From NCBI GenBank assembly GCA_965205165.1, contig OZ242037.1, positions 339,294 through 403,293 of the forward strand: 64,000 bases of DNA, in the 5' to 3' direction. This DNA comes from Dehalococcoidia bacterium. Its GTDB lineage: Bacteria > Chloroflexota > Dehalococcoidia > Bin125. The position numbers and the translations under genes were made by a program. The notes under the pieces are model-generated. The model ran no database searches and had not been told where the DNA came from. It saw only the letters and a program-made list of their open reading frames with translations. Positions 10,308-53,225 of this stretch are shown piece by piece; position 1 is the first letter of the stretch, and the number at the start of each line of letters is the position of its first letter.

Positions 10308-11630
10308 CTAGAGGATTTCGTCGCGGCGGAGGTCGGCGAGGGCGGCTTCGAAGGCGGCGAGGGTGGCGTCGATTTCGGGGTCGCCGTGGACGCAGGAGAC
10401 GAGCGCGCCGGTGCCCATCAGGTCGACGCCGTGGTTGAGCATGGCGCGGCGGAAGGGCCACATGACGGCGGGGGGCGTTTCGGGCAGCGAGGCGCGGGGG
10501 CCGCCGAGGGGGTCCCAGTCCCAGGTGAAGCCGTCGTCCGGGCGGGGGAGTTCCGCGCCGAGGACGAGGTGGACCATGGAGGCGTCGGTGAAGGCGGCGC
10601 CGGGGACTTCGGCGGTGAGCAGTGCGCGGTTGAAGCCCTGGGTGAGGCGGCGGGCTTGGCCGGCGGCGCGTTCGACGGCATCGGTTTCGCCGACGGCGGC
10701 GAGGGCGGCTGCGCCGGCGGCGGCGCTGAGCGGGTTGGCGTTGAAGGTGCCCGGGTGGAGGACGCGTTGGCCCGCGCCGTTGGGGGCGATCTGGTCGAGC
10801 AGGTCGCGTCGGCCGGCGAGCGCGCCGCCGGGCAGGCCGCCGGCGACGATTTTGGCGAGGGTGGTGAGGTCGGGGCGGATGCCGAGGCGCTCCTGCACGC
10901 CGCCGCGGGAGGCGCGGAAGCCGGTGACGACTTCGTCGAAGATGAGGACGGTGCCGTGTTCGGCGGTGAGGCGGCGGAGTTCGGCGGGGATTTCGGGCGG
11001 CAGCGGAATTGCGCCCCAATGGGGGCCGGTGGGTTCGAGGATGGCGGCGGCGTATTGGCCGGTGGCGAGTTCGCGGGCCATGGCCTCGATGTCGGTCTGG
11101 TCGAGGAAGGTCATCGCCGACTGCATGGCTTGCGAGAGGCCCGCGCCGCCGGTCATGACGCTGTCGTTCCAGCCGTGGAAGTGGCCGTTGAGGCGGAGGA
11201 TTTTTTCGCGGCCGGTGGCGGCGCGGGAGACACGGGCGGCCATCATGGTGGCTTCGGTGCCGGAGGAGGTGAAGCGGACTTTTTCGGCGGAGGGGAGCAG
11301 GCGCTGGATGGCGGCGGCCCACTGGAGTTCGAGGTCGGTGGTGCCGCTGGCGTGGGTGCCGCGCTCGATCTGGCGCTGGACGGCGGCGACGAGGTCGGGG
11401 TGGGCGTGGCCGAAGAGGAGCGCGCCGTGGCCCATCACGTAGTCGATGACTTGGTTGCCGTCGACGTCCCACTTGCGCGGGCCGGCGGCGCGGTCGTAGA
11501 CGATGCCGAAGGGCTCGAAGAGGCGGACGTCGTGGGTGACGCCGCCGGGGAAGACGGAGCGTGCGCGGTCGGCGCGGTCGGCGGAGCCGGGATGGAGCTG
11601 GAGGAAGCGGTCGTCGATGGCGGCGGGCAT
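10308..11630 (-). CDS. class III PLP-dependent aminotransferase, glutamate-1-semialdehyde 2,1-aminomutase-like
   Basis: 440 aa with SGTEATMMAARVSRAATGR, LIFDEVVTGFR and DLTTLAKIVAGGLPGGA (PLP lysine context), which resemble the HemL family. Confidence 0.85.
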   Translation of the reverse strand: MPAAIDDRFLQLHPGSADRADRARSVFPGGVTHDVRLFEPFGIVYDRAAGPRKWDVDGNQVIDYVMGHGALLFGHAHPDLVAAVQRQIERGTHASGTTDLELQWAAAIQRLLPSAEKVRFTSSGTEATMMAARVSRAATGREKILRLNGHFHGWNDSVMTGGAGLSQAMQSAMTFLDQTDIEAMARELATGQYAAAILEPTGPHWGAIPLPPEIPAELRRLTAEHGTVLIFDEVVTGFRASRGGVQERLGIRPDLTTLAKIVAGGLPGGALAGRRDLLDQIAPNGAGQRVLHPGTFNANPLSAAAGAAALAAVGETDAVERAAGQARRLTQGFNRALLTAEVPGAAFTDASMVHLVLGAELPRPDDGFTWDWDPLGGPRASLPETPPAVMWPFRRAMLNHGVDLMGTGALVSCVHGDPEIDATLAAFEAALADLRRDEIL

Positions 11631-12990: not shown

Positions 12991-13374
12991 TCAGTTGGCG
13001 GCGAGGGCGGCGCGGATGAGGGCGCGGGCATCGTGCGTTTCCGGCAGGATATCGAGTGCGGTCTGTTGAATCTGCGCGAGGAGATCTGGTTCGAGAGGTT
13101 CGCGGGTGACGATCCTGCCGTTCTCAATGGCTTCGGCGATGAGCGCTTCCCGTTCTAGTCTCATCCCGCGCCAGTAGATGCAGGTTTCGCGTCGAATCCA
13201 CGGGTGATCGTCCTTTTGCAAGACCAACGGACAATCTTGGTGGGACGCTTGATCGGACCAGTGAGAGGTGAAGTTGGCCAAGGCGAGGCGGCCGTCTTGG
13301 TCTGGCTGGCTCAGGATGATCCAGAGATGGTTCGCTTGGTCGTAACCGAAGAACGTGGCTCCCGGGGATGTCAC
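12991..13374 (-). CDS. 127-aa partner of PanA-like gene, cassette 1; candidate toxin, family not recognised
   Basis: ATG at 13374 overlaps the stop of the upstream DUF4065-like gene (ATGA). Homologous to the ORFs at 13968..14351 and 14977..15357. Shared pattern: PG..F.G.D...HLW..(L/I)S, AN(F/I)T(S/T)HW, C, H.W, (T/S)C(I/L)(Y/F). Confidence 0.7.
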   Translation of the reverse strand: MTSPGATFFGYDQANHLWIILSQPDQDGRLALANFTSHWSDQASHQDCPLVLQKDDHPWIRRETCIYWRGMRLEREALIAEAIENGRIVTREPLEPDLLAQIQQTALDILPETHDARALIRAALAAN

Positions 13375-13940
13375 TGTGCGAGGGCGGCGTGGAGGCTGTA
13401 GACGGCGCAGGCTTTCTCTTCGAAGTCCGCGATCATTTCGGGGGTGAAACCTTCTTCGCGGAGGATGAGGTAGGGGTCGATCTCGACGGTGCCGTCATGC
13501 GGGGCGCTCCACTCGGGCAGTTGGCGGGTGTAGTGGCAGAGCATGGGGAGTTCGCTGCGGCCGTGTTGATCGTAGATGGCATTCAGGTCACGGATCGCCC
13601 AGCCGCTGAGGTAGCCGGTACCGCTGTTTTCCGCACAGGCGAGATAGGGACCGTGGGCAGGGCGGACGTATTGGGCCCAAGTCTCGCTGCCGACGGCCTG
13701 ATCGCCGGCGATCAGGCTGAGGATGTTCCGGAGGGCGGGGCCATTCTCGGTGTTGATGAGATCGTCGCCGGTGATGGTGATCGCGCCGTCGACGAAATTG
13801 CGGCGGTCGGCGAGGTAGAGGAGTTTGACGAGGCGGGTGCCGTGCATCTGCCCGCCGTGGCGGCGGAGGAGGCAGGCGGCGGCTTGAGCGGCTTTGCGCT
13901 CGTCGAAGGCGAAGCGGATGCGACATTCGTGCGAGCTCAT
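13371..13940 (-). CDS. DUF4065/SocA/GepA (Panacea, PanA-type) antitoxin-like protein, cassette 1
   Basis: 189 aa. RLVKLLYLADRRNFVDGAITITGDDLINTENGPALRNILSLI matches the K(L)LYLADR...ITGD...GP.L core of the DUF4065 family as I recall it. Confidence 0.75.
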   Translation of the reverse strand: MSSHECRIRFAFDERKAAQAAACLLRRHGGQMHGTRLVKLLYLADRRNFVDGAITITGDDLINTENGPALRNILSLIAGDQAVGSETWAQYVRPAHGPYLACAENSGTGYLSGWAIRDLNAIYDQHGRSELPMLCHYTRQLPEWSAPHDGTVEIDPYLILREEGFTPEMIADFEEKACAVYSLHAALAQ

Positions 13941-13967
13941 TTGGCAAGGGTAGCGCGGGCTGCGCGT

Positions 13968-14351
13968 TCAGTCGGTGGCGAGGGTGGCGCTGATGATGTT
14001 GCGGAATTTGGCGGGGAGGTCGGGGAGTTGGAGGGCGGTGCGGTGGAGACGGGCCAGGAGCCGGGATGTCGCGGGGGTGTCGGTCGGCAGCGCTCCGCTT
14101 TGGATGCCGTCCGCTATCTCGCTGCGCGGACGGAGGTGGATGCCGTCCCAGAAGATGCATGTCGGCCGGCGTATCCACGGATGATCGCGCTTGGCGAGGA
14201 TGAGCGGGCACGATTGGCGGAGCGTGCTGCCGGCCCAGTGGGATGTGAAGTTGGCGAGCACGAGCTGGTCGTTCTGATCGGGGAGGCTGAGGATCAGCCA
14301 GAGGTGGCCGGCTTCGTCGTATCCGCGGAAGGTGGTGCCCGGATCGGTCAC
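13968..14351 (-). CDS. 127-aa partner of PanA-like gene, cassette 2; candidate toxin
   Basis: GTG at 14351 overlaps the upstream stop (GTGA). Exactly the same length (384 nt) as cassette 1. Sequence: VTDPGTTFRGYDEAGHLWLILSLPDQNDQLVLANFTSHW...CPLILAKRDHPWIRRPTCIFW. The track ORF 13968..14516 over-extends upstream. Confidence 0.7.
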   Translation of the reverse strand: MTDPGTTFRGYDEAGHLWLILSLPDQNDQLVLANFTSHWAGSTLRQSCPLILAKRDHPWIRRPTCIFWDGIHLRPRSEIADGIQSGALPTDTPATSRLLARLHRTALQLPDLPAKFRNIISATLATD

Positions 14352-14917
14352 GCTCGGAGGGCGGCTTCGAGGCTGTAGATGGCATCGGCCCGTTCCTCGA
14401 CGTCGCAGATCATTTCGGGCGTGAAGCCTTCGCCGCGGAGGATGGCGTAGGGGTCGATCTCGGCGGCGGCGCTTTGCGGGGCGCGCCATTCGGGGAGTTG
14501 GCGGGCGTAGAGGCAAAGCTGGGGGAGTTCGCTGTTGCCGTGTTGATCGTAGACGGCGTCGAGGCGCTTGATGGAGGCGCCGTGCAGGTTGCCGTCGTCA
14601 TGGTCGTCGGTGCCGGCGAGGTAGGGGCCGTGAGCGGGCTGGACATGGCAGTTCCAAGCGGCGCGGCCGGGGGCGTCTTCGCCGGCGATGAGGCGGAGGA
14701 TGTTCTTGAGCGCGGGGCCGTCTTCGGCATTGATGAAGTCGTCGCCGGTGATGGGGATGCCGGTTTCGACGAAATTCCGGCGGTCGGCGAGGTAGAGGAG
14801 TTTGACGAGGCGCGCACCGTGCATCTGCCGGCCGTGCCTGTGCAGGAGGCGGCCGGCCGCTTGGGCGGCCTTGACTTCGTCGAACGCGAAGCGGATGCGG
14901 CATTCGTGCGAGCTCAT
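14348..14917 (-). CDS. DUF4065/SocA (PanA-type) antitoxin-like protein, cassette 2
   Basis: ATG at 14917 (MSSHECRIRFAFDEVKAAQAA...), 189 aa and 570 nt, as in cassette 1. Contains RLVKLLYLADRRNFVETGIPITGDDFINAEDGPALKNILRLI. The track ORF 14348..15217 over-extends. Confidence 0.75.
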   Translation of the reverse strand: MSSHECRIRFAFDEVKAAQAAGRLLHRHGRQMHGARLVKLLYLADRRNFVETGIPITGDDFINAEDGPALKNILRLIAGEDAPGRAAWNCHVQPAHGPYLAGTDDHDDGNLHGASIKRLDAVYDQHGNSELPQLCLYARQLPEWRAPQSAAAEIDPYAILRGEGFTPEMICDVEERADAIYSLEAALRA

Positions 14918-14976
14918 CGGGCAAGGGTAGCGCGGGCGGCGGGCTTGCAGGGGGGCTATTGATGCAGGGGGCGGGG

Positions 14977-15357
14977 TCAGGCCGGTTGGAGGGCGGTGCG
15001 GATTGCGGTTTTGGAGGCGGTGTCGGGGTAGGGGGATTCCAGGGCGGCGAGTTGGAGTTTGCGGAGCAGGGCGGGGGATGCGGGGTCGTGTTGTTCTATG
15101 GCGCCGGTGCGGATGTCTTGTTCGATCTTGGCGGTGCTGAAGAAGGCGATGCCTTTGGGGTAGAGGCAGGAGTCGTGCTGGACCCACTCGTGCTCTCGTT
15201 CGCCGACGATGCGGCATGCCTTGTGGTCGGGGTCGTCGGGCCAGTGGGTGGTGATGTTGGCCATCACGATCAGGGCGTCGGGGGTCTGGTGGCTGATGGC
15301 GAACCAGAGGTGCCGGCGGGGGTCTAGGCCGATGAAGGCGTCGCCGGGGTTGATCAC
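14977..15357 (-). CDS. 126-aa partner of PanA-like gene, cassette 3 (diverged); candidate toxin
   Basis: GTG at 15357 overlaps the upstream stop (GTGA). Sequence: VINPGDAFIGLDPRRHLWFAISHQTPDALIVMANITTHW...C...HEWVQHDSCLY. Confidence 0.6.
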   Translation of the reverse strand: MINPGDAFIGLDPRRHLWFAISHQTPDALIVMANITTHWPDDPDHKACRIVGEREHEWVQHDSCLYPKGIAFFSTAKIEQDIRTGAIEQHDPASPALLRKLQLAALESPYPDTASKTAIRTALQPA

Positions 15358-15902
15358 GCGACGTATTTGCGGTGGGCTTGGTGGGCGGTTTCGAGGTCGG
15401 CTTGGATTCGGTCGATGTACCAGTCGGCGTAGCCGGCTGCTTGGAGGATTTCGCGGGGGTTGATGGGGGAGTCTTCGTTGCAGACGCCTCGCCATTCGCT
15501 CAGGGAGCGGAGGCGTTCTTCGAGATCTTGGGGCGGATCGGTGGCGAATCTGTCGTGGATGCGGTCGAGGAAATCGGAAGATGCTTCGGAGAGTTGGCTC
15601 TCGTCGTCGTTGGGGGTGGGGCAGGCCAGGGCGTCGGGGGCGATGTTGACGTGGCGGGGCCAAGCGGAGTTGGGCGCGGAGGCGGAGCCGGAGGCGAGGT
15701 CGCGGATGCGGCGGAGGGCGGGGCCGTCGTTGGTGGAGATGAACTCGTCGCCGGTGATGGTGGCGTGGTGTTCGACGAGGAACCAGCGGTCGGCGAGGTA
15801 GAGGAGCTGGGCGAGTTTGGCGGCGGGCATGGGGGCACCGTGGCGGCGGAGGATGCGGGCGGCGGCTTGGGCGGCGCGAAGTTCGTTGAAGGCGAAATGC
15901 AT
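15354..15902 (-). CDS. DUF4065/SocA (PanA-type) antitoxin-like protein, cassette 3 (diverged)
   Basis: 182 aa with KLAQLLYLADRWFLVEHHATITGDEFISTNDGPALRRIRDL. A GGGAGGG Shine-Dalgarno lies 5 nt upstream of the ATG. Confidence 0.7.
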   Translation of the reverse strand: MHFAFNELRAAQAAARILRRHGAPMPAAKLAQLLYLADRWFLVEHHATITGDEFISTNDGPALRRIRDLASGSASAPNSAWPRHVNIAPDALACPTPNDDESQLSEASSDFLDRIHDRFATDPPQDLEERLRSLSEWRGVCNEDSPINPREILQAAGYADWYIDRIQADLETAHQAHRKYVA

Positions 15903-15962
15903 CCTACCCTCCCGCGGGCGATCGTATCGGAATCGGCCGGCGTGGAGGGGGTGCAGCCGGGG

Positions 15963-17702: not shown

Positions 17703-18095
17703 CTACTCGTCTTCTTCTTCCTCTGCGGCGTCGATTTCGGCGGGGGCTTCGTCGTCGCGGTAGAAGTCTTCGGATTCGGCGAGTGTTTTGATGCCGTCGA
17801 CGATGGTTTCGAGGTGGCGCTGGTCGGAGGCTCGGCGCATGCGGGAGATGAGGGAGCCGACCATGCCCTTGACTTCGAGCGAGGCGAGCAGGCGGGAGCG
17901 CGCGCCGAGCGGCTGGATTTGGAAGTCGTAGACGGCGCCGGTGAGGAAGGTGGACCAGCCGACGGAGTAGCGGCGGCCTTCGTCGTCGTGGAGGACTTTG
18001 AACGCGCCGTTCTCGACGGCGTCGGAGAGCTTGATCGCAACGGCGTCGTAGACGTCGATGGCCTGCGCGGAGATCTCGGCGGTGACCTGGGTCAT
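17703..18095 (-). CDS. hypothetical 130-aa protein with strongly acidic C-terminal tail
   Basis: ATG at 18095 overlaps the stop of the upstream GIY-YIG gene (ATGA). Sequence: MTQVTAEISAQAIDVYDAV...DFYRDDEAPAEIDAAEEEEDE. No family recognised. Confidence 0.6.
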   Translation of the reverse strand: MTQVTAEISAQAIDVYDAVAIKLSDAVENGAFKVLHDDEGRRYSVGWSTFLTGAVYDFQIQPLGARSRLLASLEVKGMVGSLISRMRRASDQRHLETIVDGIKTLAESEDFYRDDEAPAEIDAAEEEEDE

Positions 18096-19012
18096 TCGAG
18101 GGCGTTGAGCCAGTCTTTGAGCGTGGTGCCGTCCGAGGCGATCCAGTCCGACCGCGTGGTGGGCGCGGAGCCGGAAAAGACAGTCCCCGCTTCTGACTGG
18201 CTGCCCGCGATCCAATCCTCCACAAGCCGAAGGGCATCGCCGTCTTCAACGAGCCGGCCACTCTCAATCAGAGCGCTTCGCGACGAGGCGTAGTACTCCT
18301 CAGCAAACCGCGTCCGTGGATTGCGGCGGGCTCGCGAATCTTTGAGCACGCGGAAACCGCCCGAGCTCTCGTAGACGGCACGGGCATGCGCGTCGCCTTT
18401 CCGGTATTCAAACACCGGAGACGGGCGGCCAGCCTTGTCGACGGCAGTCGATTTCGGAGGGCTGCCACCTGTCGCCGGGCCATCTCCGGAGGACGGCGTG
18501 TCAACGCTTGGCTTCGCCTGTAGGAACTCAAAGAAACCGAGCATCTCGAACGCGAGGAGCGCATCCTCCAGAAAGTCATCCGCGCCTGCGGCACCCGCTG
18601 GCGGAAGCTGGTGCTTGGTGGGATCAGATTGTTGAATCCGGCAACGGCTGGACTGTTCAGCGATTTCGACCAGCGACGCCTCAAGCCACCCCGCCTGCCC
18701 GGCATGGAGACTTCCGTCTGAAGAAGTGAAGATGACGGCCTCGGTCCACCAGTCGATCTTGCGGCGGTGCTCTCCCAGCCGGTTGGCGAGATCCTCGCTT
18801 TTCCCAATGTAGATGCGCGTCGACGGCCCGCTGGCCGCAGGCTCGACCCCGCGCAGCACGTAGACGCCGGGGTGCGGAAGATCGGGAAGCGCGTCACGCG
18901 CATCGAGGGATTCCCGCAGCAGTGCGACCGCTTGGGTCTTGCGGTTGATGCGCCCGGCCAAGCGGACATGATGCGGAAGAAGGCTGGACTCAAAATGGAT
19001 GTCGTTAGGCAT
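18092..19012 (-). CDS. GIY-YIG nuclease domain + C-terminal DUF4357-like domain protein (paralog 1)
   Basis: 306 aa from ATG 19012. GIY-YIG-like GVYVLRG...IYIGKSEDLANRLGEH. The C-terminal GGFRVLKDSRA...EDWIAGSQSEAGTVFSGSAPTTRSDW aligns by eye with the DUF4357 core (D..F.S.S.AA....G.......W). Codon usage is visibly less GC3-rich than in neighbouring genes. Confidence 0.75.
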   Translation of the reverse strand: MPNDIHFESSLLPHHVRLAGRINRKTQAVALLRESLDARDALPDLPHPGVYVLRGVEPAASGPSTRIYIGKSEDLANRLGEHRRKIDWWTEAVIFTSSDGSLHAGQAGWLEASLVEIAEQSSRCRIQQSDPTKHQLPPAGAAGADDFLEDALLAFEMLGFFEFLQAKPSVDTPSSGDGPATGGSPPKSTAVDKAGRPSPVFEYRKGDAHARAVYESSGGFRVLKDSRARRNPRTRFAEEYYASSRSALIESGRLVEDGDALRLVEDWIAGSQSEAGTVFSGSAPTTRSDWIASDGTTLKDWLNALE

Positions 19013-19594
19013 TGGCGGAAGGTAGCCGCCAGAAGGCGTTTGGTCAATGCGCCCAATCGCGACGTTTTCCGGTGGGAAGCACTGCATCCCTCCGCTGCGC
19101 CTGACAGTCGGGACCGGAGACCATGCTCGAATCAGCGGCGGAGGCGCTGTGGACAATGCACGGGTGTGCGTCAAGGACGCCCTTTCGCACTCGATTCGGT
19201 CGCCCTGCGCGAAGCATCAGGGGTCGTCAAAAGCGCGGCCGTCCGTTCGCCCCTCCGGGTCCGATTGCTGAGCTTGGAGCAGACGGCGAAGAGCGTCGTG
19301 CAGCAGGTCTGCCACGATCAGCACAACCCCGCAGATGGTAGCGGAGCCGGCGAGGATCGCGGACACGATCGTGTCCACCGGGCGTTCCAGGCATGCCCGC
19401 CTGGAACGTCGATCTGGTGCCAGTTCGTCAAGGTCGCGGCGATGAGGACCAGCGACGCGAGCGCAAAGGCGACTGCGATGGTGAGCATCTCAAGCCCTCT
19501 CAGTCCGTGTGCCGGGAATGCGGCTTCGGGGCTCTTCAAGATAGCGGGTTCGCGCATTGCGGAACGAGAGGAGGCGATGGCGTGCGCACGGCGG

Positions 19595-20521
19595 TCACCC
19601 GCTGTCGAGGATCGCGCCCAAGGTGCGCCCATCCGACTTCCACGCGGTTAGCCCGCTGGACGAGTTCCCTAGAATGACGCCAGCCGCTTCGGTTGGCGAA
19701 CGGAATTCATGATCTTCCGTGAACACGAAACATTCTCCGCTCTCGCTCTTCTGCAGAATGCCGTCATCAATGATCTGTTGGCGCGTGTTCCGGTAGCCCT
19801 CGAACTCCTTGCGCTTCATCCACGAAGGCGCGGGCTCGAGCACCGCTTGCGATCCCTCCTTCACGACCCAGGATCCGTCTTCCACACGCATGGCAGCCTG
19901 AACAGACTTCCCAGACAACTCGACATCCTGTACATCTAGGCTCTTGAGGCCGCTTTCGTTTGATGAGCGGCGCCCAAGCTCTGTCCTTTCGAATTCCCTG
20001 ACCCCCAGAGCACGTAGGCAAATCAGCGCATTCTCAATGTAGGTCTCGGCCGAGGCCACATCGGCTTGCGAGAGCCGTGAGCTTGAAGGATCGTAAGATT
20101 CCGGACGCTCATTTTCGAGCACGCAACTGCGTGCTTCATAGGCCAGTTGGACCAATTTCCTCTCCAGGTACTGGACATGCCCCTTGTTCAGGTTCGCGTC
20201 TTTGCTGGTGCAGCAGAACGCCTCGGTCCAAAACCGCTTGTCGGCGGAGGGCCGCGAGTGGGCCTTGACGCGGTTCCCAACTTCGTCGCTCTCGCCGATG
20301 TAGAGCTTGATCAAATCCTCACTGTCGTCGTCCAGCCCTCGCAGGACATACACTCCCGGTCCTTCCAGAGCGCTCAACCCTAGGCCCAAGGCCTCCTCAA
20401 GATCGCCTCGACGGAGCGCGATCACGCAGCCGCTCCAGTTGTCCTTCTCAACCACGCGAATGCCGATCGGATCACCGGAGGGCACGAATGTGTGGAGGGA
20501 GAAGGCGCTGCCGTGGTGCAT
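19595..20521 (-). CDS. GIY-YIG nuclease domain + C-terminal DUF4357 domain protein (paralog 2)
   Basis: 308 aa from ATG 20521. Contains GVYVLRG...LYIGESDEVGNRVKAH and a C-terminal GSWVVKEGSQA...EDHEFRSPTEAAGVILGNSSSGLTAWK. Only this last part of the 686-aa track ORF looks genuine. Confidence 0.75.
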   Translation of the reverse strand: MHHGSAFSLHTFVPSGDPIGIRVVEKDNWSGCVIALRRGDLEEALGLGLSALEGPGVYVLRGLDDDSEDLIKLYIGESDEVGNRVKAHSRPSADKRFWTEAFCCTSKDANLNKGHVQYLERKLVQLAYEARSCVLENERPESYDPSSSRLSQADVASAETYIENALICLRALGVREFERTELGRRSSNESGLKSLDVQDVELSGKSVQAAMRVEDGSWVVKEGSQAVLEPAPSWMKRKEFEGYRNTRQQIIDDGILQKSESGECFVFTEDHEFRSPTEAAGVILGNSSSGLTAWKSDGRTLGAILDSG

Positions 20522-20560
20522 TGCCGGAAGGTAGCACGGACGGCGTGCGATGATGGGGGG

Positions 20561-21592
20561 ATGGAGAGCGTGCCTGAGTTGACGGGGGAGGAGCGGGTCG
20601 CGTACCAGGCGGGGCTGGAGGTGCGGGCGTTGGTGGAGGGGCGGGGTGAGGGGTGGGTTTTGAGGTGTGCGGAGGTGGCGTTGACGGCGGGGCATGGGTT
20701 TGTGCGGGGGGAGGCGCGGATTGGGTTGCAGGTTGCGCCGGCGGGGGAGGCTGTTTCGGCGCTGTTGCCGGCGTTGTTGTCGGAGAATCGGCGGATGCGG
20801 AGGCGGGCGATGACGTTGTTGCCGCGGTTGGAGCCCGAGGCTGTGGTTGCGGGGTTGGCGGGGGTGCTGCCGGGGGCTTCGGTGGGGGCGCGGCGGGCGG
20901 CTTGCGTGGCGTTGGCGGCGGTGGGGAGAGCGGGGTTGCCGTTGTTGGAGGAGTTGGCGGGGGATTCTGATGAGGCGGTGCGGCGGCGGGCGGGGCGGGC
21001 GGTCGAGGCGGTGCTGGCGAGGGGGGATTCGGGGGAGCCGGGGGCTGATGGTGATCGGTCGCGGTCTTCGGTGCGGCCGTTCGGGTTGTTGCCGCCGGAG
21101 GGGGGGATGCGGGAGCGGGAGCGGTCGTTCGCGGTGGCGGCGTTCAATTTTTCGTACGGGGTGAATTTGGGGACGTTGATCCGGTCGGCGGAGGCGGCGG
21201 GTGCGGAGGCGGTATGGATCGTTGGGCGGGATTTCTACTATCGGCCTTCGACGAAGGGGGCGGACTGGTGGATTCCGGTGGAGGTGGTGGCGACGCCGGC
21301 GGAGTGCTTGGAGCGGGCGCGGGCGGAGGGGTTCGGCGTGGTGGCATTGCAGCAGGGGGAGCGGACGGCGGATGCTTGGAGCGCGGAGTGGCCGGAGCGG
21401 CCGTTGATCGTGGTCGGGAACGAGGGGGACGGGCTGCCGGCGGAGTTCGCGGCGGCGGCGGAGTTGCGGATCGAGCTGCCGGTTTGGGGGGAGATCGATA
21501 GTTTGAACGCATCGGTGGCGGCATCGGTGGCGATGTACGCATTCCGGGCATGGCAGGCGCGGACTGGCCGGGCAGGGCAGGCGCAGGTGTAA
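20561..21592 (+). CDS. HEAT-repeat N-terminal domain fused to SpoU/TrmH-type RNA 2'-O-methyltransferase domain
   Basis: ATG at 20561. The N-terminal half is Ala/Leu/Arg-rich with HEAT-like repeats (LLSENRRMRRRAMTLL, DSDEAVRRRAGRAV). The C-terminal half carries NLGTLIRSAEAAGAEAVWIVG, IVVGNEGDGLP and IELPVWGEIDSLNASVAASVAMY (SPOUT motifs). Confidence 0.7.
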   Translation: MESVPELTGEERVAYQAGLEVRALVEGRGEGWVLRCAEVALTAGHGFVRGEARIGLQVAPAGEAVSALLPALLSENRRMRRRAMTLLPRLEPEAVVAGLAGVLPGASVGARRAACVALAAVGRAGLPLLEELAGDSDEAVRRRAGRAVEAVLARGDSGEPGADGDRSRSSVRPFGLLPPEGGMRERERSFAVAAFNFSYGVNLGTLIRSAEAAGAEAVWIVGRDFYYRPSTKGADWWIPVEVVATPAECLERARAEGFGVVALQQGERTADAWSAEWPERPLIVVGNEGDGLPAEFAAAAELRIELPVWGEIDSLNASVAASVAMYAFRAWQARTGRAGQAQV

Positions 21593-21705
21593 GAGATCGG
21601 TATGCGGTTTGATCGCGTTGGGGGAATTCGGGGCGCGGCGGGGGCGTGGGGGCATAGGCTTTCGGTTGCGCGGTGATGGAGGCCGCGCGCGGAGGAGGTT
21701 TCACG

Positions 21706-43717: not shown

Positions 43718-44695
43718 ATGACCACGGCGCTCGCATCCAACCTCCATGCCCGCCCGACCGGGCCCGACCTCTCGGTCGACGCGGCGCCGGGGGCGAAGCG
43801 GGACTTGGTGCTGCGCAATCCCGTGATGACCGCATCGGGGACGGGCGGGAACGGGCGCGAGCTGGCGCGGCTCTTCGACGTCTCGCGGCTGGGCGCGCTG
43901 GTCTCGAAGGGGCTGACCCTGCGGCCCAAGCGCGGGAACCCGCGACCGCGGATCGCGGAGACGCCGGCCGGGATGCTCAACACGATCGGGTTCCAGAACG
44001 TCGGCCTGCGCAAGCTGCTGCGCGATGTCGCGCCGGTCTGGGAGGCTTGGGACGTTCCCATCATCGTGAACATCATGGGCGACACGCCGGACGAGTTCGC
44101 GGTGCTGGCGGAAGCGCTGGACGGCGCGCCGGGCGTCGCCGCGCTGGAGGTCAACGTCTCCTGCCCGAACTTGGATTCGGGCGGGATCGAGTTCGGGCGC
44201 GACCCCGTGCAGGCGGCGCGGGTGACGGAGGCCGTGGCCACCGCGACGACCCTGCCCGTGATCGTGAAGCTGACGCCCGACGTGACGGACATCCGCGTCG
44301 TGGCGCGGGCGGTCGAGGCGGCCGGCGCGCACGCGGTCTGCGTGGCCAACTCGTTCGTGGGCATGTCGATCGATGTGCGGCGGCGCGCCCCGCGGACGGC
44401 GCGGCCGGTCGCGGGGCTGACCGGGCCGGCGATCAAGCCGCTGGCGCTGCGGCTGGTCTGGCAGGCGGCGCAGGCGGTGGAGATACCGGTGATCGGCTGC
44501 GGCGGAATTTCGACCGGGCGCGACGCCGTGGAGTTCCTGCTGGCCGGCGCGACGGCGGTGCAAGTGGGGACGGCCTCGTTCCGTGACCCGTTCGCGCCGG
44601 TCCGCGTCGTCGAGGAGATCGCGGATTATTGTCGGGAAGAAGGCGTCGCGCAGGTCGCGGACCTGATCGGCGCCCTGCGCATCGACGGGGTGTAG
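43718..44695 (+). CDS. pyrD: dihydroorotate dehydrogenase, class 1 catalytic subunit
   Basis: 325 aa with NPVMTASGT, GMLNTIGFQN, LEVNVSCPN, VKLTPD, NSF, GLTGPAIKP and GCGGIS, all typical of class 1 PyrD. Confidence 0.92.
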   Translation: MTTALASNLHARPTGPDLSVDAAPGAKRDLVLRNPVMTASGTGGNGRELARLFDVSRLGALVSKGLTLRPKRGNPRPRIAETPAGMLNTIGFQNVGLRKLLRDVAPVWEAWDVPIIVNIMGDTPDEFAVLAEALDGAPGVAALEVNVSCPNLDSGGIEFGRDPVQAARVTEAVATATTLPVIVKLTPDVTDIRVVARAVEAAGAHAVCVANSFVGMSIDVRRRAPRTARPVAGLTGPAIKPLALRLVWQAAQAVEIPVIGCGGISTGRDAVEFLLAGATAVQVGTASFRDPFAPVRVVEEIADYCREEGVAQVADLIGALRIDGV

Positions 44696-44762
44696 CTCAG
44701 TCTGGCAGAGCACGCGGTTTGGGGCCGCGAGGCCGGCGGTTCGAATCCGCCCACCCCGACCA
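44686..44762 (+). tRNA. tRNA-Pro(UGG): tRNA-Pro, anticodon UGG, CCA encoded
   Basis: Hand-folded cloverleaf:
- acceptor stem CGGGGTG/CACCCCG
- D arm GCTC-AGTCTGGCA-GAGC
- anticodon arm CGCGG-TTTGGGG-CCGCG (TGG at positions 34-36, G37)
- variable loop AGGCC
- T arm GGCGG-TTCGAAT-CCGCC
- discriminator A followed by CCA
The first 10 nt overlap the pyrD 3' end. Confidence 0.9.
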
Positions 44763-44835: not shown

Positions 44836-47800
44836 CTAGCGGGCGATGAAGAGGAGGTCTTGTGGGTGGAGGGGGAAGTTTTGGGAGCCTGGGATGGGGT
44901 TGCCTTGCGGGTCGGCGGCGTAGAGGATCCAGCGGCGGCCGTTCCAGAGGTGGAGGGCTTGGGCGCCGGGGAGTTCGTCGAAGAGGTCGGCGGCGGTGGC
45001 GGTGGTTGCATCGGCGGGGGCTGCCCAGACGGTGAGGCCGCTGGTGGTGGCGGGGTCGGCGGGGCGGCCGGCGCCGTCGGCTAGGTGGGCGGCGGGGGAG
45101 GTCGGGTCTGAGGGCGGGGTCGGTTGGCCGGGGAGGGGTGCGTTGCGGGCGTCGATCGGTTCGACGGCGGAGGCGGTGGTGCGGGAGCCGTCTTGGGCGT
45201 CGAAGGAGATGATGGCGATGGCTTGGGAGGCGGTGACGAAGGTGGCGGTGGCGGCGCCGTCCTTGGTGGCCAGGGTGGCGCTCTGCTCGGTGGTGGAGTC
45301 GCTGGGCGGGTTGGCGAGCTGGAGGGGGGAGGGGCCGTCGGCGGCGGTGGCGCGGACGCGGATGGTGGTGCCGTCGGCCACGGGGTTGCCGTCGGCGTCG
45401 GAGGCGCCGACGCGGATGTCGAGCGTGCGGCCGAGCAGGGGCGGGCCGGCGGGGACGGGGTCGAGCGCGGCGGCGGGGCCGGCGACGCCGAAGGGGGCGG
45501 TCAGCGGGCGCAGGCCGGGCGGGGCGACCTCGAGGCGGTAGCGGCCGGAGGCGAGCGGGGCGGTGGCGGCGGCGACGGCGGTGATGCGGTACTTGCACTT
45601 GCTGGCGCCGGTTTGGCAGAGGCGCTCGATCGTCAGGAAGTTCTGCGAGACCGGGCTGCCGGCGGCGTCGAGCACGCGGGCCGTGGCGGAGGGCAGGGCG
45701 GCGGCGTTGCCGGAGGAGTCGCGGGCTTCGATTTCGAGTTCGATCACGTCGCGGTCGTCGTCGGGGGTGGCGCGGTGGTGGAGCAGGGGCAGGCCGGCGC
45801 CGGCGCGCAGGGCGGAGGCGGCGCCGGCGAAGGTCAGGTCGAGCGCGTCGGTGTAGAGCGACTGCGCGCCGCCGGTGGCGGTGACGGCGAGCGAGATGCG
45901 GGCGGAGCCCTCGCCGGCCGGCGGGGTGAAGGTGATCGGCAGCGCGGCGGGCAGTGCCGGGTTCGCGGCCACTGCCGCGGCGAAGCCGGTGCCGGTGCCG
46001 GCGTTGATCGTGCAGCTGCGGGCCGAGCCGGGGCAGAGCGAGCCGGAGAGCGAGCCGCGGGTGGCGGTGAGGGTGATCGAGGCGATCGCGGCGGCATCGG
46101 CCGCGGCGCCGCCGGCGGCGGTGATGCGGACTTCGAGGTTTGCCGTGCCGCCGCGCGGGACGGGGCCGCTCGCGCCGGCGGCGCGGGCCAGCGCGACGGC
46201 GGCGACGGGCGCGGGCTCGCCCACGTCGATTTCGGCGGTGCGGAAGAGCGGGCCGCTGGCCAGGCGGAAGGCGGCGGCGGTGTCGGCGTAGCGGTCGGTC
46301 GGCTGCGTCGCGGCGCCGGTGAAGAGGTGGAAGCGGCGCTGGCGGGTCGGGATCAGGCTGGCCGTGATGCGGACATCCTCGGCGGCGGAGGCGTCGATGG
46401 CGATGCTGGGGCGGTTGCCTTCGGCGTCGGTGATCCAGCAGGCGATGTCGCGCTCGCCGGCCGTGGAGGAACCCTGCTCAGAGGCCAAGCCGCAGCGCAT
46501 GCGGCTCCAGGCGCCGCCCAGCATCAGGCGCTTCGAGCCGTCGCCCGCGCCCTCGACGCGCCAGGTCGCGGGGCCGGTGATGGCGAGGTAGGAATCGGCG
46601 ATCAGCCAGGCCGCGGCGGCCGACGGCGGGTCGCCGCCGGACAGGCGCGAGAGGCCGCCGGCGCAGGCGTCGAGCAGCTTGCCGTTTTCGTCCAGTTCGA
46701 GGAAGGAGGGGTCGGGGCGGGCGCAGCCCCAGCCGGAGCCGACCGCGTCGACGGCGACGGTGAAGCCGGCCGCGACCTCGGCCGTGGCGCCGGCGGCGAT
46801 CACCCCGTCCGCATCGGTCGGCGGGTAGGCCGAGCCGACCGGGGCCGAGACGGCGGGATGCGCGATGGCGAGCTGGCCGACCGCGGCGGCCTCCTCGCCG
46901 GCGAAGCGGGCGCGGACCGTGATCGTGGTCGGGCCGGAGACGCCGAGGGGCAGCGCGTACTCGGCGCGCAGGTTGCCGATCGGGTCGGAGGCGGTCGCGG
47001 AGCCGGCGCCGGCGAGCAGCTGGGCGCGGCTGAGCGAGAGCGTGCAGCCGCTCGATGAGGCGGCGCAGGCCTGGCCGTTGTAGGAGAGCGTGCCTTGGCT
47101 GATCGTCAGCTCGACCGCCTTGGCTTCGGCCAGTTCGGCGAACGTTGCGCTCTTGACCCGGCTGGGCAGGGCCGAGCGCGGGGCGGGGGCGGCGGTCGCG
47201 CGCGAGTCGGCGCGGCCGATCGCGAACAGCGCGGCCGGCGCGGCGGCGGCGTAGGCACTGCCGGGGTCGCTCCAGTCGAGGTAGACGCCAGCGGCGCGCT
47301 TGCCCGGGCCGGCGAGGTGGGCGAACGCCAGCGTCTGCTCGATCATCTCGGGCGGGCTCGCGCCGGCGATCTCGTAGCTCAGCGTCACCGTGCCGGTCGC
47401 GCCGGATGCGGCGGACGGGACGTAGGCCAGCTCGAGCGGGCGGATCGGCTCGTTCGCTTCGGATGCGCCTTGGAAGGCTTGCAGGGCGGCGCTGGTGATC
47501 GTGCAGGTGGAGGCGTCGCTCTGCACGGCCGGCTGGTAAACGGGGTGCTCCGCGGCGGTCCGCGGGCAGAGGGCTTGGTGGATGATCTCGCCCGCGCTCG
47601 CCGTGATCGTGAGCGTGGTGATCTCGTTGTACTGGACCAGCTCGTCGCCGTTCGCCGTCGGCGGATTGGCGGGGTGCGCCTCGAGGCCGCGCATCAGCGT
47701 CGCCGCGAACCCGATCGGAGTGCCCCGCTGCGCGGACGGGGCGGTGCAGGCGGTGAGCGCGGCGTCGCCGCTGCCGGACTCGGCGAGCGTGCAAACGCGC

Positions 47801-50800
47801 AGGCCGGCGGCGGCGTCCGCGTCGGCGATCAGCGGCAGGGCGAAGGCGCGCTTGGCCGGGGAGACCATGCGCAGCTCGTAGACCGCGGTGCGGGCGCCGC
47901 CGGCGGCCGACTCCAATGCGATCCGCTGGACCGGGCCGGTGCCCTCGGACTGCTCGTTGACGGGCTGGGCCGAGGTCGGCCCCATTCGGCCGGTATGCGC
48001 GAGCTCGATCCGGATTGTGGCGGCGGCCGAGTACTCGGCCGGCACCGAGGCGGCGAACTCGAGGCCGCCGGGCGTCCGCGCGCCGCGCTGGCGCGCTTGC
48101 CATTCGGCGCGGGTGATCTCGCAGGACGCGGCGACCGGGCAGAGGCCGCGCAGCGGGGTGCCGTTGCGGGCGGTCAGCTCGGCGCCCGCGATCAGGTCGC
48201 CGGCCGCGTCCTGCACCCGGATCGTGACCGTCTCGAAGTCCGCGAAGGACGGGCGCAGCGCGGCCGTCGGCGCGATGTATGCCTGCCGGCGCGCGTTGTA
48301 CAGCTCCAAGGCCAAGGGGGTCGGGCGGCCGCGCGGTTCGTACTCCCAAACCGTGGACGAGAGGCTGCCGGTGCGGGGCCTGCCGTCCGCGCCGACCGGG
48401 GCCAGCAGCGGGTAGGCCCAGGGCGCGTAGATGCTGAACTCGCGGACCTTGGTCATCGAGTCGGAGCGGTTCACCGTGAGCTTCAGGCGCACCGAGTTGG
48501 TCGAGCCTTGCGGGATCGAGACCGCGAACTTGAGCGGATCGACCTCATCGTTGTCGTCCGGGCTCGCCTCGGAGTCGTAGGCCTTCAGCGCGGCCAAGGT
48601 GATCGTGCAGACGTTCGACGGCTCGGCCTCCGTGCAGGGCGCGAACTTCGCGGCGGAGTCCGCGGCCGTGATCAGGCCGCCGGACGGGGCCGCCGTGCCG
48701 CTTGCGCCGTCGAGCAGTTCGATCTTCACGGCGGTCGCGCCCGAGGCCTGGTCGAACTCCCAGTACTGCGCCGTGTTCGTGCTCGTGACCGCCTCGTGCG
48801 CGGTCTTCGCGGCGTTGTAGACGTGCGCCCAGATTCGCGTGCGAGCCCCCGCCTGCGCCCACTGCTGGTCCGCCGCCGGCGCGGCGCCGGCCGCGTCCGC
48901 GACCATCGCGAACGGCTCGGCGCGGGTGCCGCCGTCGAAGGGCAGCGCGAAGGTCTTGGTGCGCTGGGCCAGGGTGCCGCTGCCGGTGCGGACGACGGTG
49001 ACCACCAGGTTGGCGTTGCCGAAGTTGGGCGTCATGTGGTTGGCGGGCACGCTGAAGTTGAACTCCAGCGGCAGCGCGCGGTAGTGGCTGCCGGCCCGCG
49101 GCGGGCCGGCCGCGAGGAAGTTCGCCGACGTGATCGTGCAGACGTTGCCGACCGCGGCCTCCGTGCAGGCCGAAGCTCCGTCGTTCTTCAGCACCTTGAC
49201 CTGGGCCCCGGTGATCGCTGAGCCGGAGCTGAGGCTGTTCGCCATGGGCCGGGTCTTGACCTCGATCTTGACCTCGCTGATCGTCGAGTAGGACACCCGG
49301 TTCGTGCTCGTCGTGTAGGTGTTGAGCGCGGTCGCGCTGTCGTAGACCAACAGCTGCACCGGCGTGTCCTGGCCGCCCGGCCGGTAGCGCCGGAAGCGGT
49401 GCGCCTGCGCGTCCTCGCTCATCAGCACGTTGCCGGTCTCGGCCGTCCCGTCGATGCCGATCGGCCGCGCGAACGGCTGCGCGTTCGAGGCCGCCGCGGC
49501 GCCGCGCTTGTAGACGGCGTCGTCGGTGCGGATGCCGTTGTTGTGGCGCGTGAGCTGGAGCAGGAGGGTCACGTCCTCGCTGCTGGTGAAGGCGGTCTTG
49601 ATCGCGAAGGCGAACTCGAACTCGAGGCTGCGGCGCGCGTCGGCCGCGCCCGTGATCCCCATCAGCGTCTTCAGCGTCGCGCGGCTCAGGGTGCAGGTGC
49701 CGCCCGCGTAGGAGTTCTCCGAGCAGCCCAGCGCCGTCCCGTCCGGCTTGGTGAACACGATCTGCGACGCGTTCAGCCCGGTCGAGGTCTGCGGCCCGGT
49801 CGGGTAGTTCGCGCTCAGGATCAGCGCCGAGCTCGAGTGCAGCGAGGCGAACGTGGCCAGCTCCGTCGCCGCCCGGGCATCCCAGCTGGCGGTGGAGGAG
49901 GACTCGTAGAGGCGCACCGCGACCCGCTGGCGCTCGGCCGCCAAGCCGTAGTAGTGCTCGTTGTCCGTGCGGTCGCCGTCATCGTCGTCGTCCTGCTCCG
50001 CCGTCCCGCCTGACAGCCGCGGGTCGAGGGCCAGCCCGGCGTGGTCCGAGCGCGTGCCCACCGGCGCCTCGTACTTCAGCGCGAAGGTGCGGTCGCGCTC
50101 GCCCGCGTTCTCCACCCGCACGTGCAGGTAGACCGCCGCGGCGCGCGTCAGCGGCACCGTGAAGTAGACCTCCAGCTCGTCCGCCGCGCCGGCGGTGGCG
50201 GGCCAGCTGGCGACCGGGATCGTGCAGACGTTGCCGGCGGTCGAGCCTTCGGTGCAGCCGGTCAGCGCGGTGCTGCCGGCCGCGTTCGAAGCGAGCACGG
50301 CGCCGGTCAGCGCCGTCCCGGCCGCGTCCGAGGCGAGCGTGAGCTTGACCGAGTCGAAGGCCGTGGTGGCCGCCCCGATGCCGGAGCTGGCCGAGGTGTG
50401 GATGCTGATCCGCGCCCGGTCCGCGCCGCCCGTCGCGCTGAACTCGCCCCCGGCCGGCAGCAGCACCCCGCTGACCAGGTGGCGCGGCGTCGCGCCCGGG
50501 TGCGCCGAGACGGAGAGCGGCTCGTCCCAGCGCAGCGAGACCGCGCGGTCTTCCTTGCCCGACTTGTTGGCCGAGAGGTGGATGTAGACCGCGCCGGCGT
50601 GCGCGTCCGGGATCGTGAAGTAGATCGAGTCGAGCGCGTTGGTGCCGGTGCAGCTGTTGGCGCACATGATCGCGGTGCCGCTGCTGTTGGTGAAGGTCGC
50701 GTTGCTCAGCAGCGTGTTGCCGGCCGCATCGGAGGTGATCTTGATCGCGTAGCCGTCGAAGGCGGCGCCGACAGCGTTCGCGTGCGAGCCGTCGTACGAG

Positions 50801-53225
50801 GTGCGGGCCTGGTTGCGCAGGAAGACCGCGGCGTAGTTCAGGCCGGCCTCGGGCTGCCAGCGGCGCGTGTTCGCTGACAGCGTGCCGCTCTCGAAGGTCG
50901 ACGAGGTCGGCTGCGGGACGAGCAGCGGCCAGGCGGCGACGTATGGGGGCTGGTAGGGGATCGCGAAGGTCTGCGCGTGGCCGGCCGCGTTGCCCACGGT
51001 CACGTGCAGGTAGGCGCTGGTCAGGCGCGAATCGGGCACCGTGAACCAGATGTCCAGCGCGTCCGCGGTGCCGCCCGTGGCGGGCCAGTTGTTGATCACG
51101 CAGGTCGCGCCGGAGGCGGCGCACTGCGGGAGGCGCGCGCCCGATGAGTTGACGATCGCCGCGCCGCTCACCTCGGTGCCGCCGTCGGAGCCGGTCGCGA
51201 TCCGGATCGTGACCCGGTTGAAGTCCGCGCTCGAGGCGTTGGCCGCGCCCGATGTGTAGGTGTTCGAGTGCCAGGCGTCGCGCAGGTAGACCGTCGCCTT
51301 GTTGCGCGCCGCCTGGGAGGCGAAGTTTTCGGTGCGCGAGGTGAGCGTGCCGCCCTCGTGCGCGTCGGTGGTCGGGTGGCGCGGGACGGCGATGGGGTAG
51401 ACCGGCAGCGGCGGGCCGTATTGGAGCGCGGTGGCGCGGACCGACTTGCCGTTGGTCGCGGGGGTGGCGCTGACCACCACGTAGGCGGGGGTCGAGACGG
51501 TGTTGGGCACCGAGAAGTAGAAGCTCAGCCCGCCGGTCGCGGGCCAGTTGGCGACCGCGATCGTGCAGGCGTTGCCCACGGAGGCGCAGCCGGTCACGGC
51601 GGTGGTGCCGCCCGCGTCGGAGGAGATCTCGGCGCCGGCGAGGGCGGTGCCCTGGGCATCGGAGGAGATCGTGATCGTGACGTTGGTCACGACCGAGCTC
51701 GCCGCGTTCGCGTCGGCGGCGTTGTACTCGTCATCGTGCCAGGCATCGCGCAGGTAGACGGTGACCTCTTGCGCGACGCCGCCGGGCGAGAAGTTGCGGC
51801 TGCCGGCGGCGAGGTTCGTGCCGTCGGCGGTGCCGGAGGGGACGACCAGCGCGTAGGCGACCACGGGGCTGTCGTAGCGGACGGAGAAGACCTGATCTTC
51901 CTTGCCGCTCTCCTGCACCGTCGCGACCAGCCAGACCGCGCCGTGCTGGCTGGGCACGGTGAAATGGACGTTCTGCACCAGCGTGCGCAGCGGCGAGCCC
52001 GTGGCCGCCTGCGGCCAGCTGGCGCTGGGGATCGTGCAGACGGGGCCCTGCGAGGTCTCGCTGCAGTCGGAGAGCACGCTGCTGCCGCCGGTCGAGCCGG
52101 TGAAGACCGGCCCGCTGGCCGAGGTCGAGCCGTCCTCCGCGGTAGCCAGGCGCAGGATCACGCGGTCGAAGGCAGAGCGCTCGACCAAGGTCGCGCCCGA
52201 CGAGTACGTGTTCGAGTGGCGGGCGAAGCGCAGGTAGACCTCGGCCGAGTTCACCGCGCCGGCCGCGGCCCAGTCGCGGGTCGCGGTCTTCACGTCGCCG
52301 GTCTCGCGGGTGCCGCCCGGGGCGGGCACGACCAGCGGCCAGACGCGCAGGTAAGGGTCGTACTTGAGCGAGAACTCGCGGTCGCGCTCGCCCGCGTTCT
52401 CTACCCGCACGTGCAGGTAGACCGCGCCGTCCTGCGTCGCCGGCAGGCGGAAGTAGAGGTCCAGATCGTCCGCGTTGCCGCCCGTCGCCGGCCAGCTCGA
52501 AGCGGGGATCGTGCAGGTGTTGCCCGCCGTCGCGCCCTCCGTGCAGCCGGTCAGCGCGGTCGGGCTGCTCGCCGCTCCGTCCGAACTGAGCACCGCGTTG
52601 GCCAGCGCCGTGCTGCCGTCCGCGTTCGAGGCGACCGTGATGATCACGCGGTCGAAGTCGGCGATGGCTGCGCCCGCGCTGGAGCCGGACGCGGCGCGGA
52701 CGCTGATCCGCGCCCGGTCCGCGTTGCCGTCGCGGTCGTACTCGCCGGCCGACGCGATCACCGTCCCGCCCGAATCCTGCGGCCGCGCCAGCGGATGCGC
52801 CGAGACCGTCGCCGGCGCGTCCCACTTCAGCGAAACCGCGCGGTCCAGCTTGTCCGCCTTGTTCACGGAGAGATGCACGTAGACCGCGCCGGTGTGCGCG
52901 TCGGGGATCGTGAAGTAGCGCGTGTCGAGCGCGTTGGTGCCGGTGCAGCTGTTGGCGCAGGTCTCCGCGGTGCCGGAGGAGTTGGTGAAGGTGGCGTTGC
53001 TCAGCAGCGTGTTGCCGGCCGCGTCGGAGGTGATCTTGATCGCGTAGCCGTCGAAGGCCGCGCCGAGCGCATTCGCGTGCGCGCCGTCGTACGTGGTCCG
53101 CAGCTGATCGCGCAGGAAGACCGCGATCTGGTTCAGCCCGCCCTCCGGCAGCCAGCGCCGCGTGTTGGACGAGATCGTGCCGCTCTCGAAGGTGCTGGAC
53201 GTCGGCTGCGGCACGATCAGCGGCA
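44836..53225 (-). CDS. giant repetitive secreted/cell-surface protein, C-terminal ~2,796 codons (continuation of ORF 53217..60434 after a 1-nt frame shift)
   Basis: The sense-looking part of track ORF 44836..55251 begins at ...PLIVPQPTSSTFESG. That continues the module series of the upstream ORF. It contains ~150-aa modules with a C-x(4-8)-C-(T/V)-I...(N/S)WP motif. Next come degenerate modules and an acidic linker (EQDDDDDGD). Two invasin/Big_1-like segments follow (IEARDSSGNAA..., VGASDADGNPVADGTTIRVRA...TKDGAATATFVTAS), then an unassigned ~65-aa C-terminus. Confidence 0.85.

Follow-up and report, generated by a model that had tools for sequence, protein, structure and literature searches.

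A 64-kb stretch of contig OZ242037.1 from a Dehalococcoidia bacterium, the whole of which we call the window, carries on its minus strand three tandem gene pairs in which a gene for a Panacea-domain protein (panA; products A3, A2, and A1 in coding order) is followed by a gene for a small partner protein (panT; products T3, T2, and T1). We consider it likely that these pairs are three autonomous type II toxin–antitoxin (TA) modules of the PanAT kind, each made of a standalone PanA antitoxin and a PanT toxin of the published cluster T6 with a MazF/PemK-like fold, and that they are old paralog types held in a shuffled hotspot. The evidence comes from gene structure, family membership, genomic linkage, fold similarity, purifying selection, and the variability of the array among related genomes.

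The three pairs have the antitoxin-first geometry of type II modules (see table). The original prediction, made from the sequence without database searches, had proposed three minus-strand pairs, and its open reading frame (ORF) coordinates and 4-nt overlaps proved exact. It had allowed the overlap of the panA stop and the panT start to read ATGA or GTGA; GTGA is present at three of three junctions, with every panT starting at GTG, and ATGA at none. T3 is separated from A2 by 59 nt and T2 from A1 by 27 nt, and the cassettes repeat with periods of 977 and 1006 nt. Both spacer lengths agree with the prediction, as does the 18-nt leader common to cassettes 1 and 2, GCCCGCGCTACCCTTGCC, which lies directly 5′ of the A1 and A2 ATG; the 64-kb window contains these two copies and no other, and its 15-nt core likewise matches exactly at these two places alone. 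Among all window ORFs of 40 aa or longer, a hidden Markov model (HMM) scan found no additional A- or T-family copy. In pairwise comparison, A1 is 68% identical to A2 and 34% to A3, and T1 is 50% identical to T2 and 33% to T3. The small proteins had been claimed to be homologous to one another, and they are. The sequence motifs on which the prediction had relied (LLYLADR, ITGD, and GPAL in the upstream proteins; HLW, AN.T.HW, C, H.W, and.C.. in the small ones) were all found in the alignments. The six genes are intact in the window and, because the ratio of nonsynonymous to synonymous divergence (dN/dS) of the A and T genes against orthologous cassettes on other contigs is 0.1 to 0.6, we regard the six ORFs as real coding sequences under purifying selection.

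Table. Genes and leaders of the three-cassette array, in coding order (positions in the window).
Feature	Coordinates	Strand	Details
Leader before A3, after the stop of the enoyl-CoA hydratase gene	15903..15962	-	TACGAT 15926..15921, then GGGAGGG 15913..15907
panA A3, cassette 3 (type alpha)	15354..15902	-	182 aa; PF13274 41.0 bits, E 4e-10, residues 30-137; phrog_1281 E 1e-11
panT T3, cassette 3 (type alpha)	14977..15357	-	126 aa; family HMM E 1e-38; phrog_19071 E 2e-8; H16, T36, H57, S64 conserved
Leader before A2	14918..14976	-	59 nt; holds GCCCGCGCTACCCTTGCC; TACCCT 14929..14924, 6 nt before ATG
panA A2, cassette 2 (type beta)	14348..14917	-	189 aa; PF13274 39.3 bits; 68% identical to A1
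panT T2, cassette 2 (type beta)	13968..14351	-	127 aa; family HMM E 2e-35; 50% identical to T1
Leader before A1	13941..13967	-	27 nt; holds GCCCGCGCTACCCTTGCC; TACCCT 13952..13947, 6 nt before ATG; without Shine-Dalgarno
panA A1, cassette 1 (type gamma)	13371..13940	-	189 aa; PF13274 25.8 bits, residues 37-91 only
panT T1, cassette 1 (type gamma)	12991..13374	-	127 aa; sequence used for the AlphaFold2 model

The DUF4065/SocA identity ascribed to the upstream proteins was upheld by profile comparison, with all three scoring above the gathering threshold of PF13274 (SocA_Panacea, 25.7 bits). The match of A1 is borderline and partial, and its Panacea homology is secured by its identity to A2. A1, A2, and A3 carry no helix-turn-helix, PAD1, or zinc-binding N-terminal domain and so correspond to the 'noNTD' standalone class, and the upstream family also matches phrog_1281. 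A GPV motif in strand β2 of the Panacea domain is functionally important (Kurata et al. 2022); at the position assigned to it from our alignment, G67-P68-A69 is invariant in A1 to A3, with the valine changed to alanine. A1 and A2 are mosaic with respect to each other, with about 87% nucleotide identity over the first 240 nt, 50 to 65% at 240 to 360 nt, and 87% at 360 to 480 nt, and their synonymous divergence (dS) is 0.45 versus 1.0 for T1 and T2. Specificity may be determined by the middle segment of PanA, which is variable.

The small partners T1, T2, and T3 have no match in Pfam, NCBIfam, or PADLOC (scans of the last two returned nothing meaningful for any of the six proteins), and the only family they match, phrog_19071, has no assigned function. 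An exhaustive HMM search of 1.84 billion representative sequences collected 1155 clusters at 50% identity with E ≤ 1e-3, and 136 with E ≤ 1e-10. The members are all single-domain proteins of about 120 to 140 aa, where named mostly 'hypothetical protein', and their sources include Pirellulales, Gemmataceae, and Isosphaeraceae and metagenome-assembled genomes (MAGs) of Dehalococcoidia/Chloroflexota; diverse alignments of the family contain no conserved stretch of 7 to 10 residues. Four GTDB loci with a close T alignment were found, in the Dehalococcoidia/Chloroflexota MAGs L008 to L011 (our locus labels), and tblastn with a T-family member located plasmid homologs, each adjacent to a Panacea gene, in Endozoicomonas, Acetobacter orientalis, and Phaeobacter inhibens.

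The plasmid homologs connect the family to a published one. The A. orientalis protein BBC81763.1 is WP_126621608.1, which shares a 90%-identity cluster with WP_012553438.1 of Gluconacetobacter diazotrophicus. The T-family HMM matches WP_126621608.1 over nearly its full length with 84.8 bits (E 2e-22 at Z=1e6), and hhalign of the T family against a 24-sequence proteobacterial alignment containing the WP_126621608.1 and WP_012553438.1 clade gives 99.84% probability and an E-value of 2e-30, at an identity to the proteobacterial members of only about 22 to 30%. In the part of Dataset S1 covered here, both accessions stand in rows labeled 'pT6 T6', with order A|T, reciprocity 5|5, and PanA 'noNTD' (Kurata et al. 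2022, PNAS 119:e2102212119), and the same part gives 57 rows from several phyla for T6. The cluster includes the experimentally validated pair of Pseudomonas moraviensis, PanA WP_083354365.1 and PanT WP_083201923.1, whose PanT is toxic, is neutralized by its PanA, carries the HHpred label 'EndoA/PemK/MazF-family RNAses', and specifically blocks incorporation of 35S-methionine (Kurata et al. 2022). Homology to listed T6 members thus places the small proteins in a published family, one of whose members has been validated by experiment. The original prediction had taken them for an unrecognized and possibly undescribed PanT family; of this, only the lack of a Pfam or NCBIfam model survives. Cluster T1 (Nitrolancea, Acetobacter syzygii) was also considered as the published match of the T family and rejected when accession look-up gave T6.

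Linkage of the two families is complete among the loci surveyed. A Panacea gene lies immediately upstream of the T homolog in all 20 loci examined, on chromosomes and plasmids of Chloroflexota, Planctomycetota, and Pseudomonadota: single A-T pairs on the Planctomycetota contigs L002 to L007, A-T pairs in the MAGs L008 to L011 and on the proteobacterial plasmids L018 to L020, and the arrangement seen in the window in the related arrays L001 and L012 to L017. The claimed partnership of the small genes with Panacea genes therefore extends to every neighborhood in the survey. Where a pair has degenerated, the toxin gene is the one affected. L001 has an alpha toxin pseudogene with an internal deletion and a frameshift (10415-11322, including a chimeric panA); L012, at 97.5% DNA identity to the window, has about 1.9 kb of other DNA in place of the gamma toxin from nt 20 on; and the gamma toxin of L013/L014 is truncated at its C terminus. 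The antitoxin is intact in each case. These three independent toxin-only losses are indirect evidence of toxicity, since toxin-first decay would be expected if T is the harmful partner. Two further observations were made at these loci. In the Gemmataceae contigs L005 to L007 (2400-5900), the PanA/T6-like pair is part of a small TA island, together with neighboring AF2212-like/PIN and MazE-like/PIN pairs. On the Phaeobacter inhibens plasmid pP54_a (L020), the T6-family ORF at 1932-2312, downstream of an annotated Panacea gene, is itself unannotated in the PLSDB table, and a gene for an 'abortive infection family protein' lies directly downstream of it on the opposite strand.

An AlphaFold2 model of T1 was built on an 84-sequence alignment that replaced one of 17 sequences. 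The model has a predicted local distance difference test (pLDDT) score of 96.2 and a predicted template modeling (pTM) score of 0.89, and all five models reach a pLDDT of at least 95.6. The best fold match in the PDB by Foldseek is E. coli MazF (5cqy_B; probability 0.99, template modeling (TM) scores of 0.53/0.63, 3.6 Å root mean square deviation (rmsd), E 0.03), followed by S. aureus MazF and many chains of M. tuberculosis MazF-mt1. In BFVD, the top seven matches are named 'Endoribonuclease', 'PemK-like', or 'PemK/MazF family toxin' (probability 0.89 to 1.0, E 6e-3 to 7e-2), and the Endozoicomonas member of the family is named 'PemK-like protein' in UniRef. The predicted fold of the partner is MazF/PemK-like, at marginal E-values. 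Over 403 T-family members, the most conserved residues are His16 (99%), Ser/Thr64 (99%), His57 (98%), Leu17 (96%), and Thr/Ser/Cys36 (91%). On the model, His16, His57, and Ser/Thr64, together with Thr/Ser36, may be the catalytic residues of an acid–base RNase site of the His/His or His/His/Ser-Thr kind.

Several results weigh against this interpretation. All Foldseek E-values lie between 6e-3 and 0.1 and the TM scores near 0.5 to 0.6, which is marginal, and an earlier AlphaFold2 model on the 17-sequence alignment (five models, pLDDT 57 to 88) had no MazF match in Foldseek; we attribute the poor quality of that first model to an alignment that was too shallow. T1 to T3 do not match PF02452, only two of 84 family members do so weakly (E 0.04, below the cut-off), and hhalign of the T family against an alignment of MazF, Kid, EndoA, and ChpBK, checked against the PDB, gives a probability of 0.1 to 0.2%. 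Membership of the canonical PemK/MazF family PF02452 was rejected on the profile and hhalign results, and kinship at the level of the fold was retained. Sequence searches of the PDB with the T profile returned only chance matches. The correspondence of active-site positions is one of strand order and not of superposition: His16 opens β2 at the place of MazF Arg29 (HLWIILS versus RPAVVLS), and Thr36 ends β3 at the place of MazF Thr52 (LALANFTS versus CLCVPCTT). The tie to the P. moraviensis PanT runs through the published cluster label and not through a direct alignment, and WP_083201923.1 is not among the top 120 matches of the T homolog search. Eight of 25 tested PanTs were nontoxic in E. coli (Kurata et al. 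2022). Lastly, a sigma-70 scan of the array returned no promoter-like site, which leaves the leaders described below as the evidence for a promoter in each cassette.

The array occupies a fixed chromosomal slot. In the window it is flanked upstream by an enoyl-CoA hydratase (ECH) gene and an SDR gene, and downstream by convergent genes for a flavin reductase, a VTT-domain protein, an aminotransferase, and glutamate synthase. The same flanks recur in metagenome contigs and in the Dehalococcoidia MAG L008, with ECH proteins 96 to 100% identical, and the slot between ECH and flavin reductase holds two to three cassettes in related Dehalococcoidia-like genomes. Clustering at 65% identity resolves at least five cassette types with strict A/T co-variation, which in our own protein-cluster labels (distinct from the published PanT clusters) are alpha (A10/T9), beta (A8/T6), gamma (A8/T5), delta (A9/T8), and epsilon (A11/T7). 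The order is alpha-beta-gamma in the window and in L012 (gamma antitoxin only), beta-alpha(pseudogene)-gamma in L001, alpha-gamma in L013, delta-alpha-beta in L015, delta-alpha in L017, and epsilon-delta-alpha in L008. The array had been described as triplicated; the cassettes are instead old, distinct types that recur in other orders in relatives, and from this reordering we view the window as one state of a variable hotspot and not as a recent triplication.

Recombination between cassettes is visible in the sequences at three places. The alpha panA of L001 is chimeric, with a leader and N terminus of the beta/gamma type (MMRSDECGIRFAFDERRAAQAAA, the first ~23 codons) followed by an alpha body; in L008 and L017, one leader with the first codons precedes both the delta and the alpha antitoxin; and the third is the A1/A2 mosaic. 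As a separate observation at L008 (7290-7381), the last ~45 nt of the alpha toxin gene including the stop (GCCGCCTTCAAATCCGCCATCCGCGCCACCCTCGCGGTCAACTGA) are tandemly duplicated at the 3′ end of the array, which may be a recombination footprint. There is no integrase among the neighboring genes (ECH, SDR, DUF4357, flavin reductase, VTT, and aminotransferase), and the spacers of 21 to 59 nt contain no long inverted repeats, although no dedicated attC search was made. Within that limit, an integron-type cassette array was rejected, as an integrase is lacking and the spacers are conserved leaders.

Related leaders stand in front of every panA, whatever its position in an array, and each contains a TAnnnT hexamer (variants TACCCT, TACCAT, TACGAT, TATCCT, and TATCGT) 6 to 35 nt before the start codon. 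In beta and gamma leaders, 6 nt lie between the hexamer and the ATG, and a Shine-Dalgarno sequence is absent. Leaders of the alpha, delta, and epsilon types carry purine-rich sequence 3′ of the hexamer, and alpha and delta cassettes in L008, L013, L015, and L017 have related GATACCATCG / GCTACCATCC leaders. Judged from sequence, the beta/gamma hexamer could be a −10-like element giving a leaderless mRNA, and each cassette would have its own promoter. No terminator-like site was found on the coding strand of the array, which would suit the six-gene transcript suggested in the original prediction, whereas the leader conserved in every cassette would not.

We propose the following mechanism. The overlap of the panA stop with the panT start would couple translation of the downstream PanT to that of PanA. 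PanT is predicted to be a small barrel of the SH3-like kind seen in MazF, PemK, and Kid, extended at the C terminus by two helices. Once freed, it would most likely cleave RNA in a sequence-specific manner and so shut off translation, the effect known for the validated T6 member. PanA probably acts by direct contact, with its Panacea domain binding and blocking the toxin of the same cassette, and its middle and C-terminal segments, which vary, are probably what sets specificity. In the literature, standalone Panacea antitoxins neutralize their toxin directly and the PanAs tested so far protect against the cognate toxin only, and because tested standalone PanAs behave in this way, we infer direct, cognate-only neutralization here. 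Recombination through two conserved stretches, the leader and the 5′ end of panA, may be what reshuffles the array.

Other arrangements of genes and targets were weighed against this mechanism. The small proteins might poison DNA gyrase or another non-RNA target in the manner of CcdB, since MazF and CcdB share the SH3-like barrel fold, the HHpred list for the related cluster T5 includes CcdB at ~98% (Kurata et al. 2022), the catalytic Arg of MazF is, by strand order, replaced by His in the T family, and the family has no profile-level similarity to MazF. However, the top structural matches are MazF/PemK in both libraries with CcdB absent from the top 50, the specific effect of the validated T6 member is to inhibit protein synthesis, and two invariant His residues with a Ser/Thr fit acid–base RNA cleavage, so that we consider a CcdB-like activity very unlikely. 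It is also unlikely, though less so, that all six genes belong to a single operon in which the paralogs cross-regulate or cross-neutralize as a network, with some copies decaying into spare antitoxins. The shortness of the spacers (27 and 59 nt), the absence of any terminator-like site from the coding strand, the close similarity of A1 and A2 (68% identity, and ~87% at the nucleotide level over the first 240 nt), and the orphan antitoxins in the relatives L012 and L001 would all suit such an operon, but every panA, including the one in first position after ECH, has its own conserved TAnnnT leader, the A and T types co-vary strictly, PanAs tested so far neutralize the cognate toxin only, and the six genes of the window are all intact and under purifying selection.

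A refinement of the TA interpretation, and not a replacement for it, is that the array is primarily an anti-phage (abortive-infection) battery in which each PanA senses a different phage cue and releases a MazF-like effector, with the hotspot under arms-race selection (Ernits et al. is cited for this reading). Array content does vary among genomes whose ECH is 96% identical, TA- or defense-like neighbors occur (PIN and MazE modules in L005 to L007, the abortive infection gene on the Phaeobacter plasmid), and the phrog_19071 and phrog_1281 matches indicate that phages carry both families. But there was no PADLOC match of note, tblastn of T3 against 50,697 phage genomes gave no match, the flanks in the window are metabolic genes, and dN/dS is below 1, with no whole-gene positive selection. 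As the primary role, we consider the battery rather unlikely. The biological role may be addiction or stabilization, phage defense, or neither, and the variable hotspot and the sensor hypothesis for Panacea make a role in defense plausible. A fuller scenario would be a fixed-slot, shuffled library of PanA–PanT pairs, of at least five insulated types with their own leaders, possibly leaderless mRNAs, and integrase-free exchange, serving as a sensor–effector battery, for example against phages; taken as a whole we find this doubtful.

Comparison with known systems places the three proposed PanAT modules closest to PanAT T6, with which they share a standalone Panacea gene upstream of a small hypothetical protein with a −4/−1 overlap or short gap, a homologous toxin, the MazF/PemK-like predicted fold, and the absence of a Pfam/CDD match. 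They differ in host, which is Chloroflexota (Dehalococcoidia-like), with no Chloroflexi row under T6 in the covered part of Dataset S1, and in that three tandem cassettes stand in a variable array instead of a single pair. The published pipeline excluded neighborhoods suggesting operons of more than three genes (Kurata et al. 2022), and a tandem array such as this one would be filtered out by it for that reason. MazEF, PemIK, and Kid-Kis (PF02452) resemble the modules in the predicted SH3-like barrel with the same strand order, the antitoxin-first bicistron, and the expected translation shut-off, but there is no sequence-profile similarity, T has, by strand order, an invariant His at the place of Arg29 and is predicted to have two extra C-terminal helices, and the antitoxin is Panacea and not MazE/AbrB or Kis. 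SocAB of Caulobacter crescentus has the same DUF4065/Panacea antitoxin domain and is the source of the PF13274 name, but its toxin SocB belongs to cluster T10. SocB blocks the β sliding clamp, and SocA is a ClpXP adaptor. Tandem type II TA paralogs, such as insulated ParDE (PMC7669267) and VapBC clusters, likewise have neighboring modules of one family whose A/T co-variation suggests that the cognate pairs are insulated; in contrast to them, the array here has one conserved slot, shuffling of order, and a shared cassette leader, with no integrase or attC-like machinery evident.

The array does not overturn the current understanding of PanAT systems. What is new is the extension of T6 PanAT to Chloroflexota and Planctomycetota and the occurrence of a tandem, shuffled PanAT array at one fixed slot in relatives. 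Although the T family comprises more than 1000 clusters at 50% identity, Pfam and NCBIfam still have no model for it, and so it is missed by genome annotation. Three co-resident pairs with five types in relatives offer ready material for asking how Panacea antitoxins achieve cognate specificity when the toxins share one fold, and the array shows, on a small scale and cleanly, how a TA hotspot changes, with shuffling, chimeric antitoxins, and toxin-first decay.

Elsewhere in the window, GC skew on the plus strand is very strong, at +0.2 to +0.38 across 1 to 34 kb, about 0 near 52 to 54 kb, and −0.3 at 60 to 62 kb, with a cumulative peak at ~53 kb. Genes on either strand show this skew (the plus-strand VTT/flavin-reductase genes at 11.7 to 13 kb are an example), and it is therefore not simply linked to transcription. 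An inverted duplication, considered as the cause of the reversal at ~53 kb in view of two ORFs that are both 1525 aa, was ruled out by self-BLAST. The region 18000-20000 has lower GC (0.58 to 0.65) and near-zero skew and overlaps DUF4357-domain genes on the minus strand (18092..19174 and 19595..21655); it may be acquired DNA. The sole Rfam match in the window at gathering thresholds is a tRNA gene at 44686-44759. Two giant putative minus-strand ORFs (3471 and 2405 aa) span 44836-60434 and suggest a very large repetitive protein, with direct repeats of ~2.3 kb at 71 to 74% identity (50069-52395, 52358-54698, and 55728-56995).

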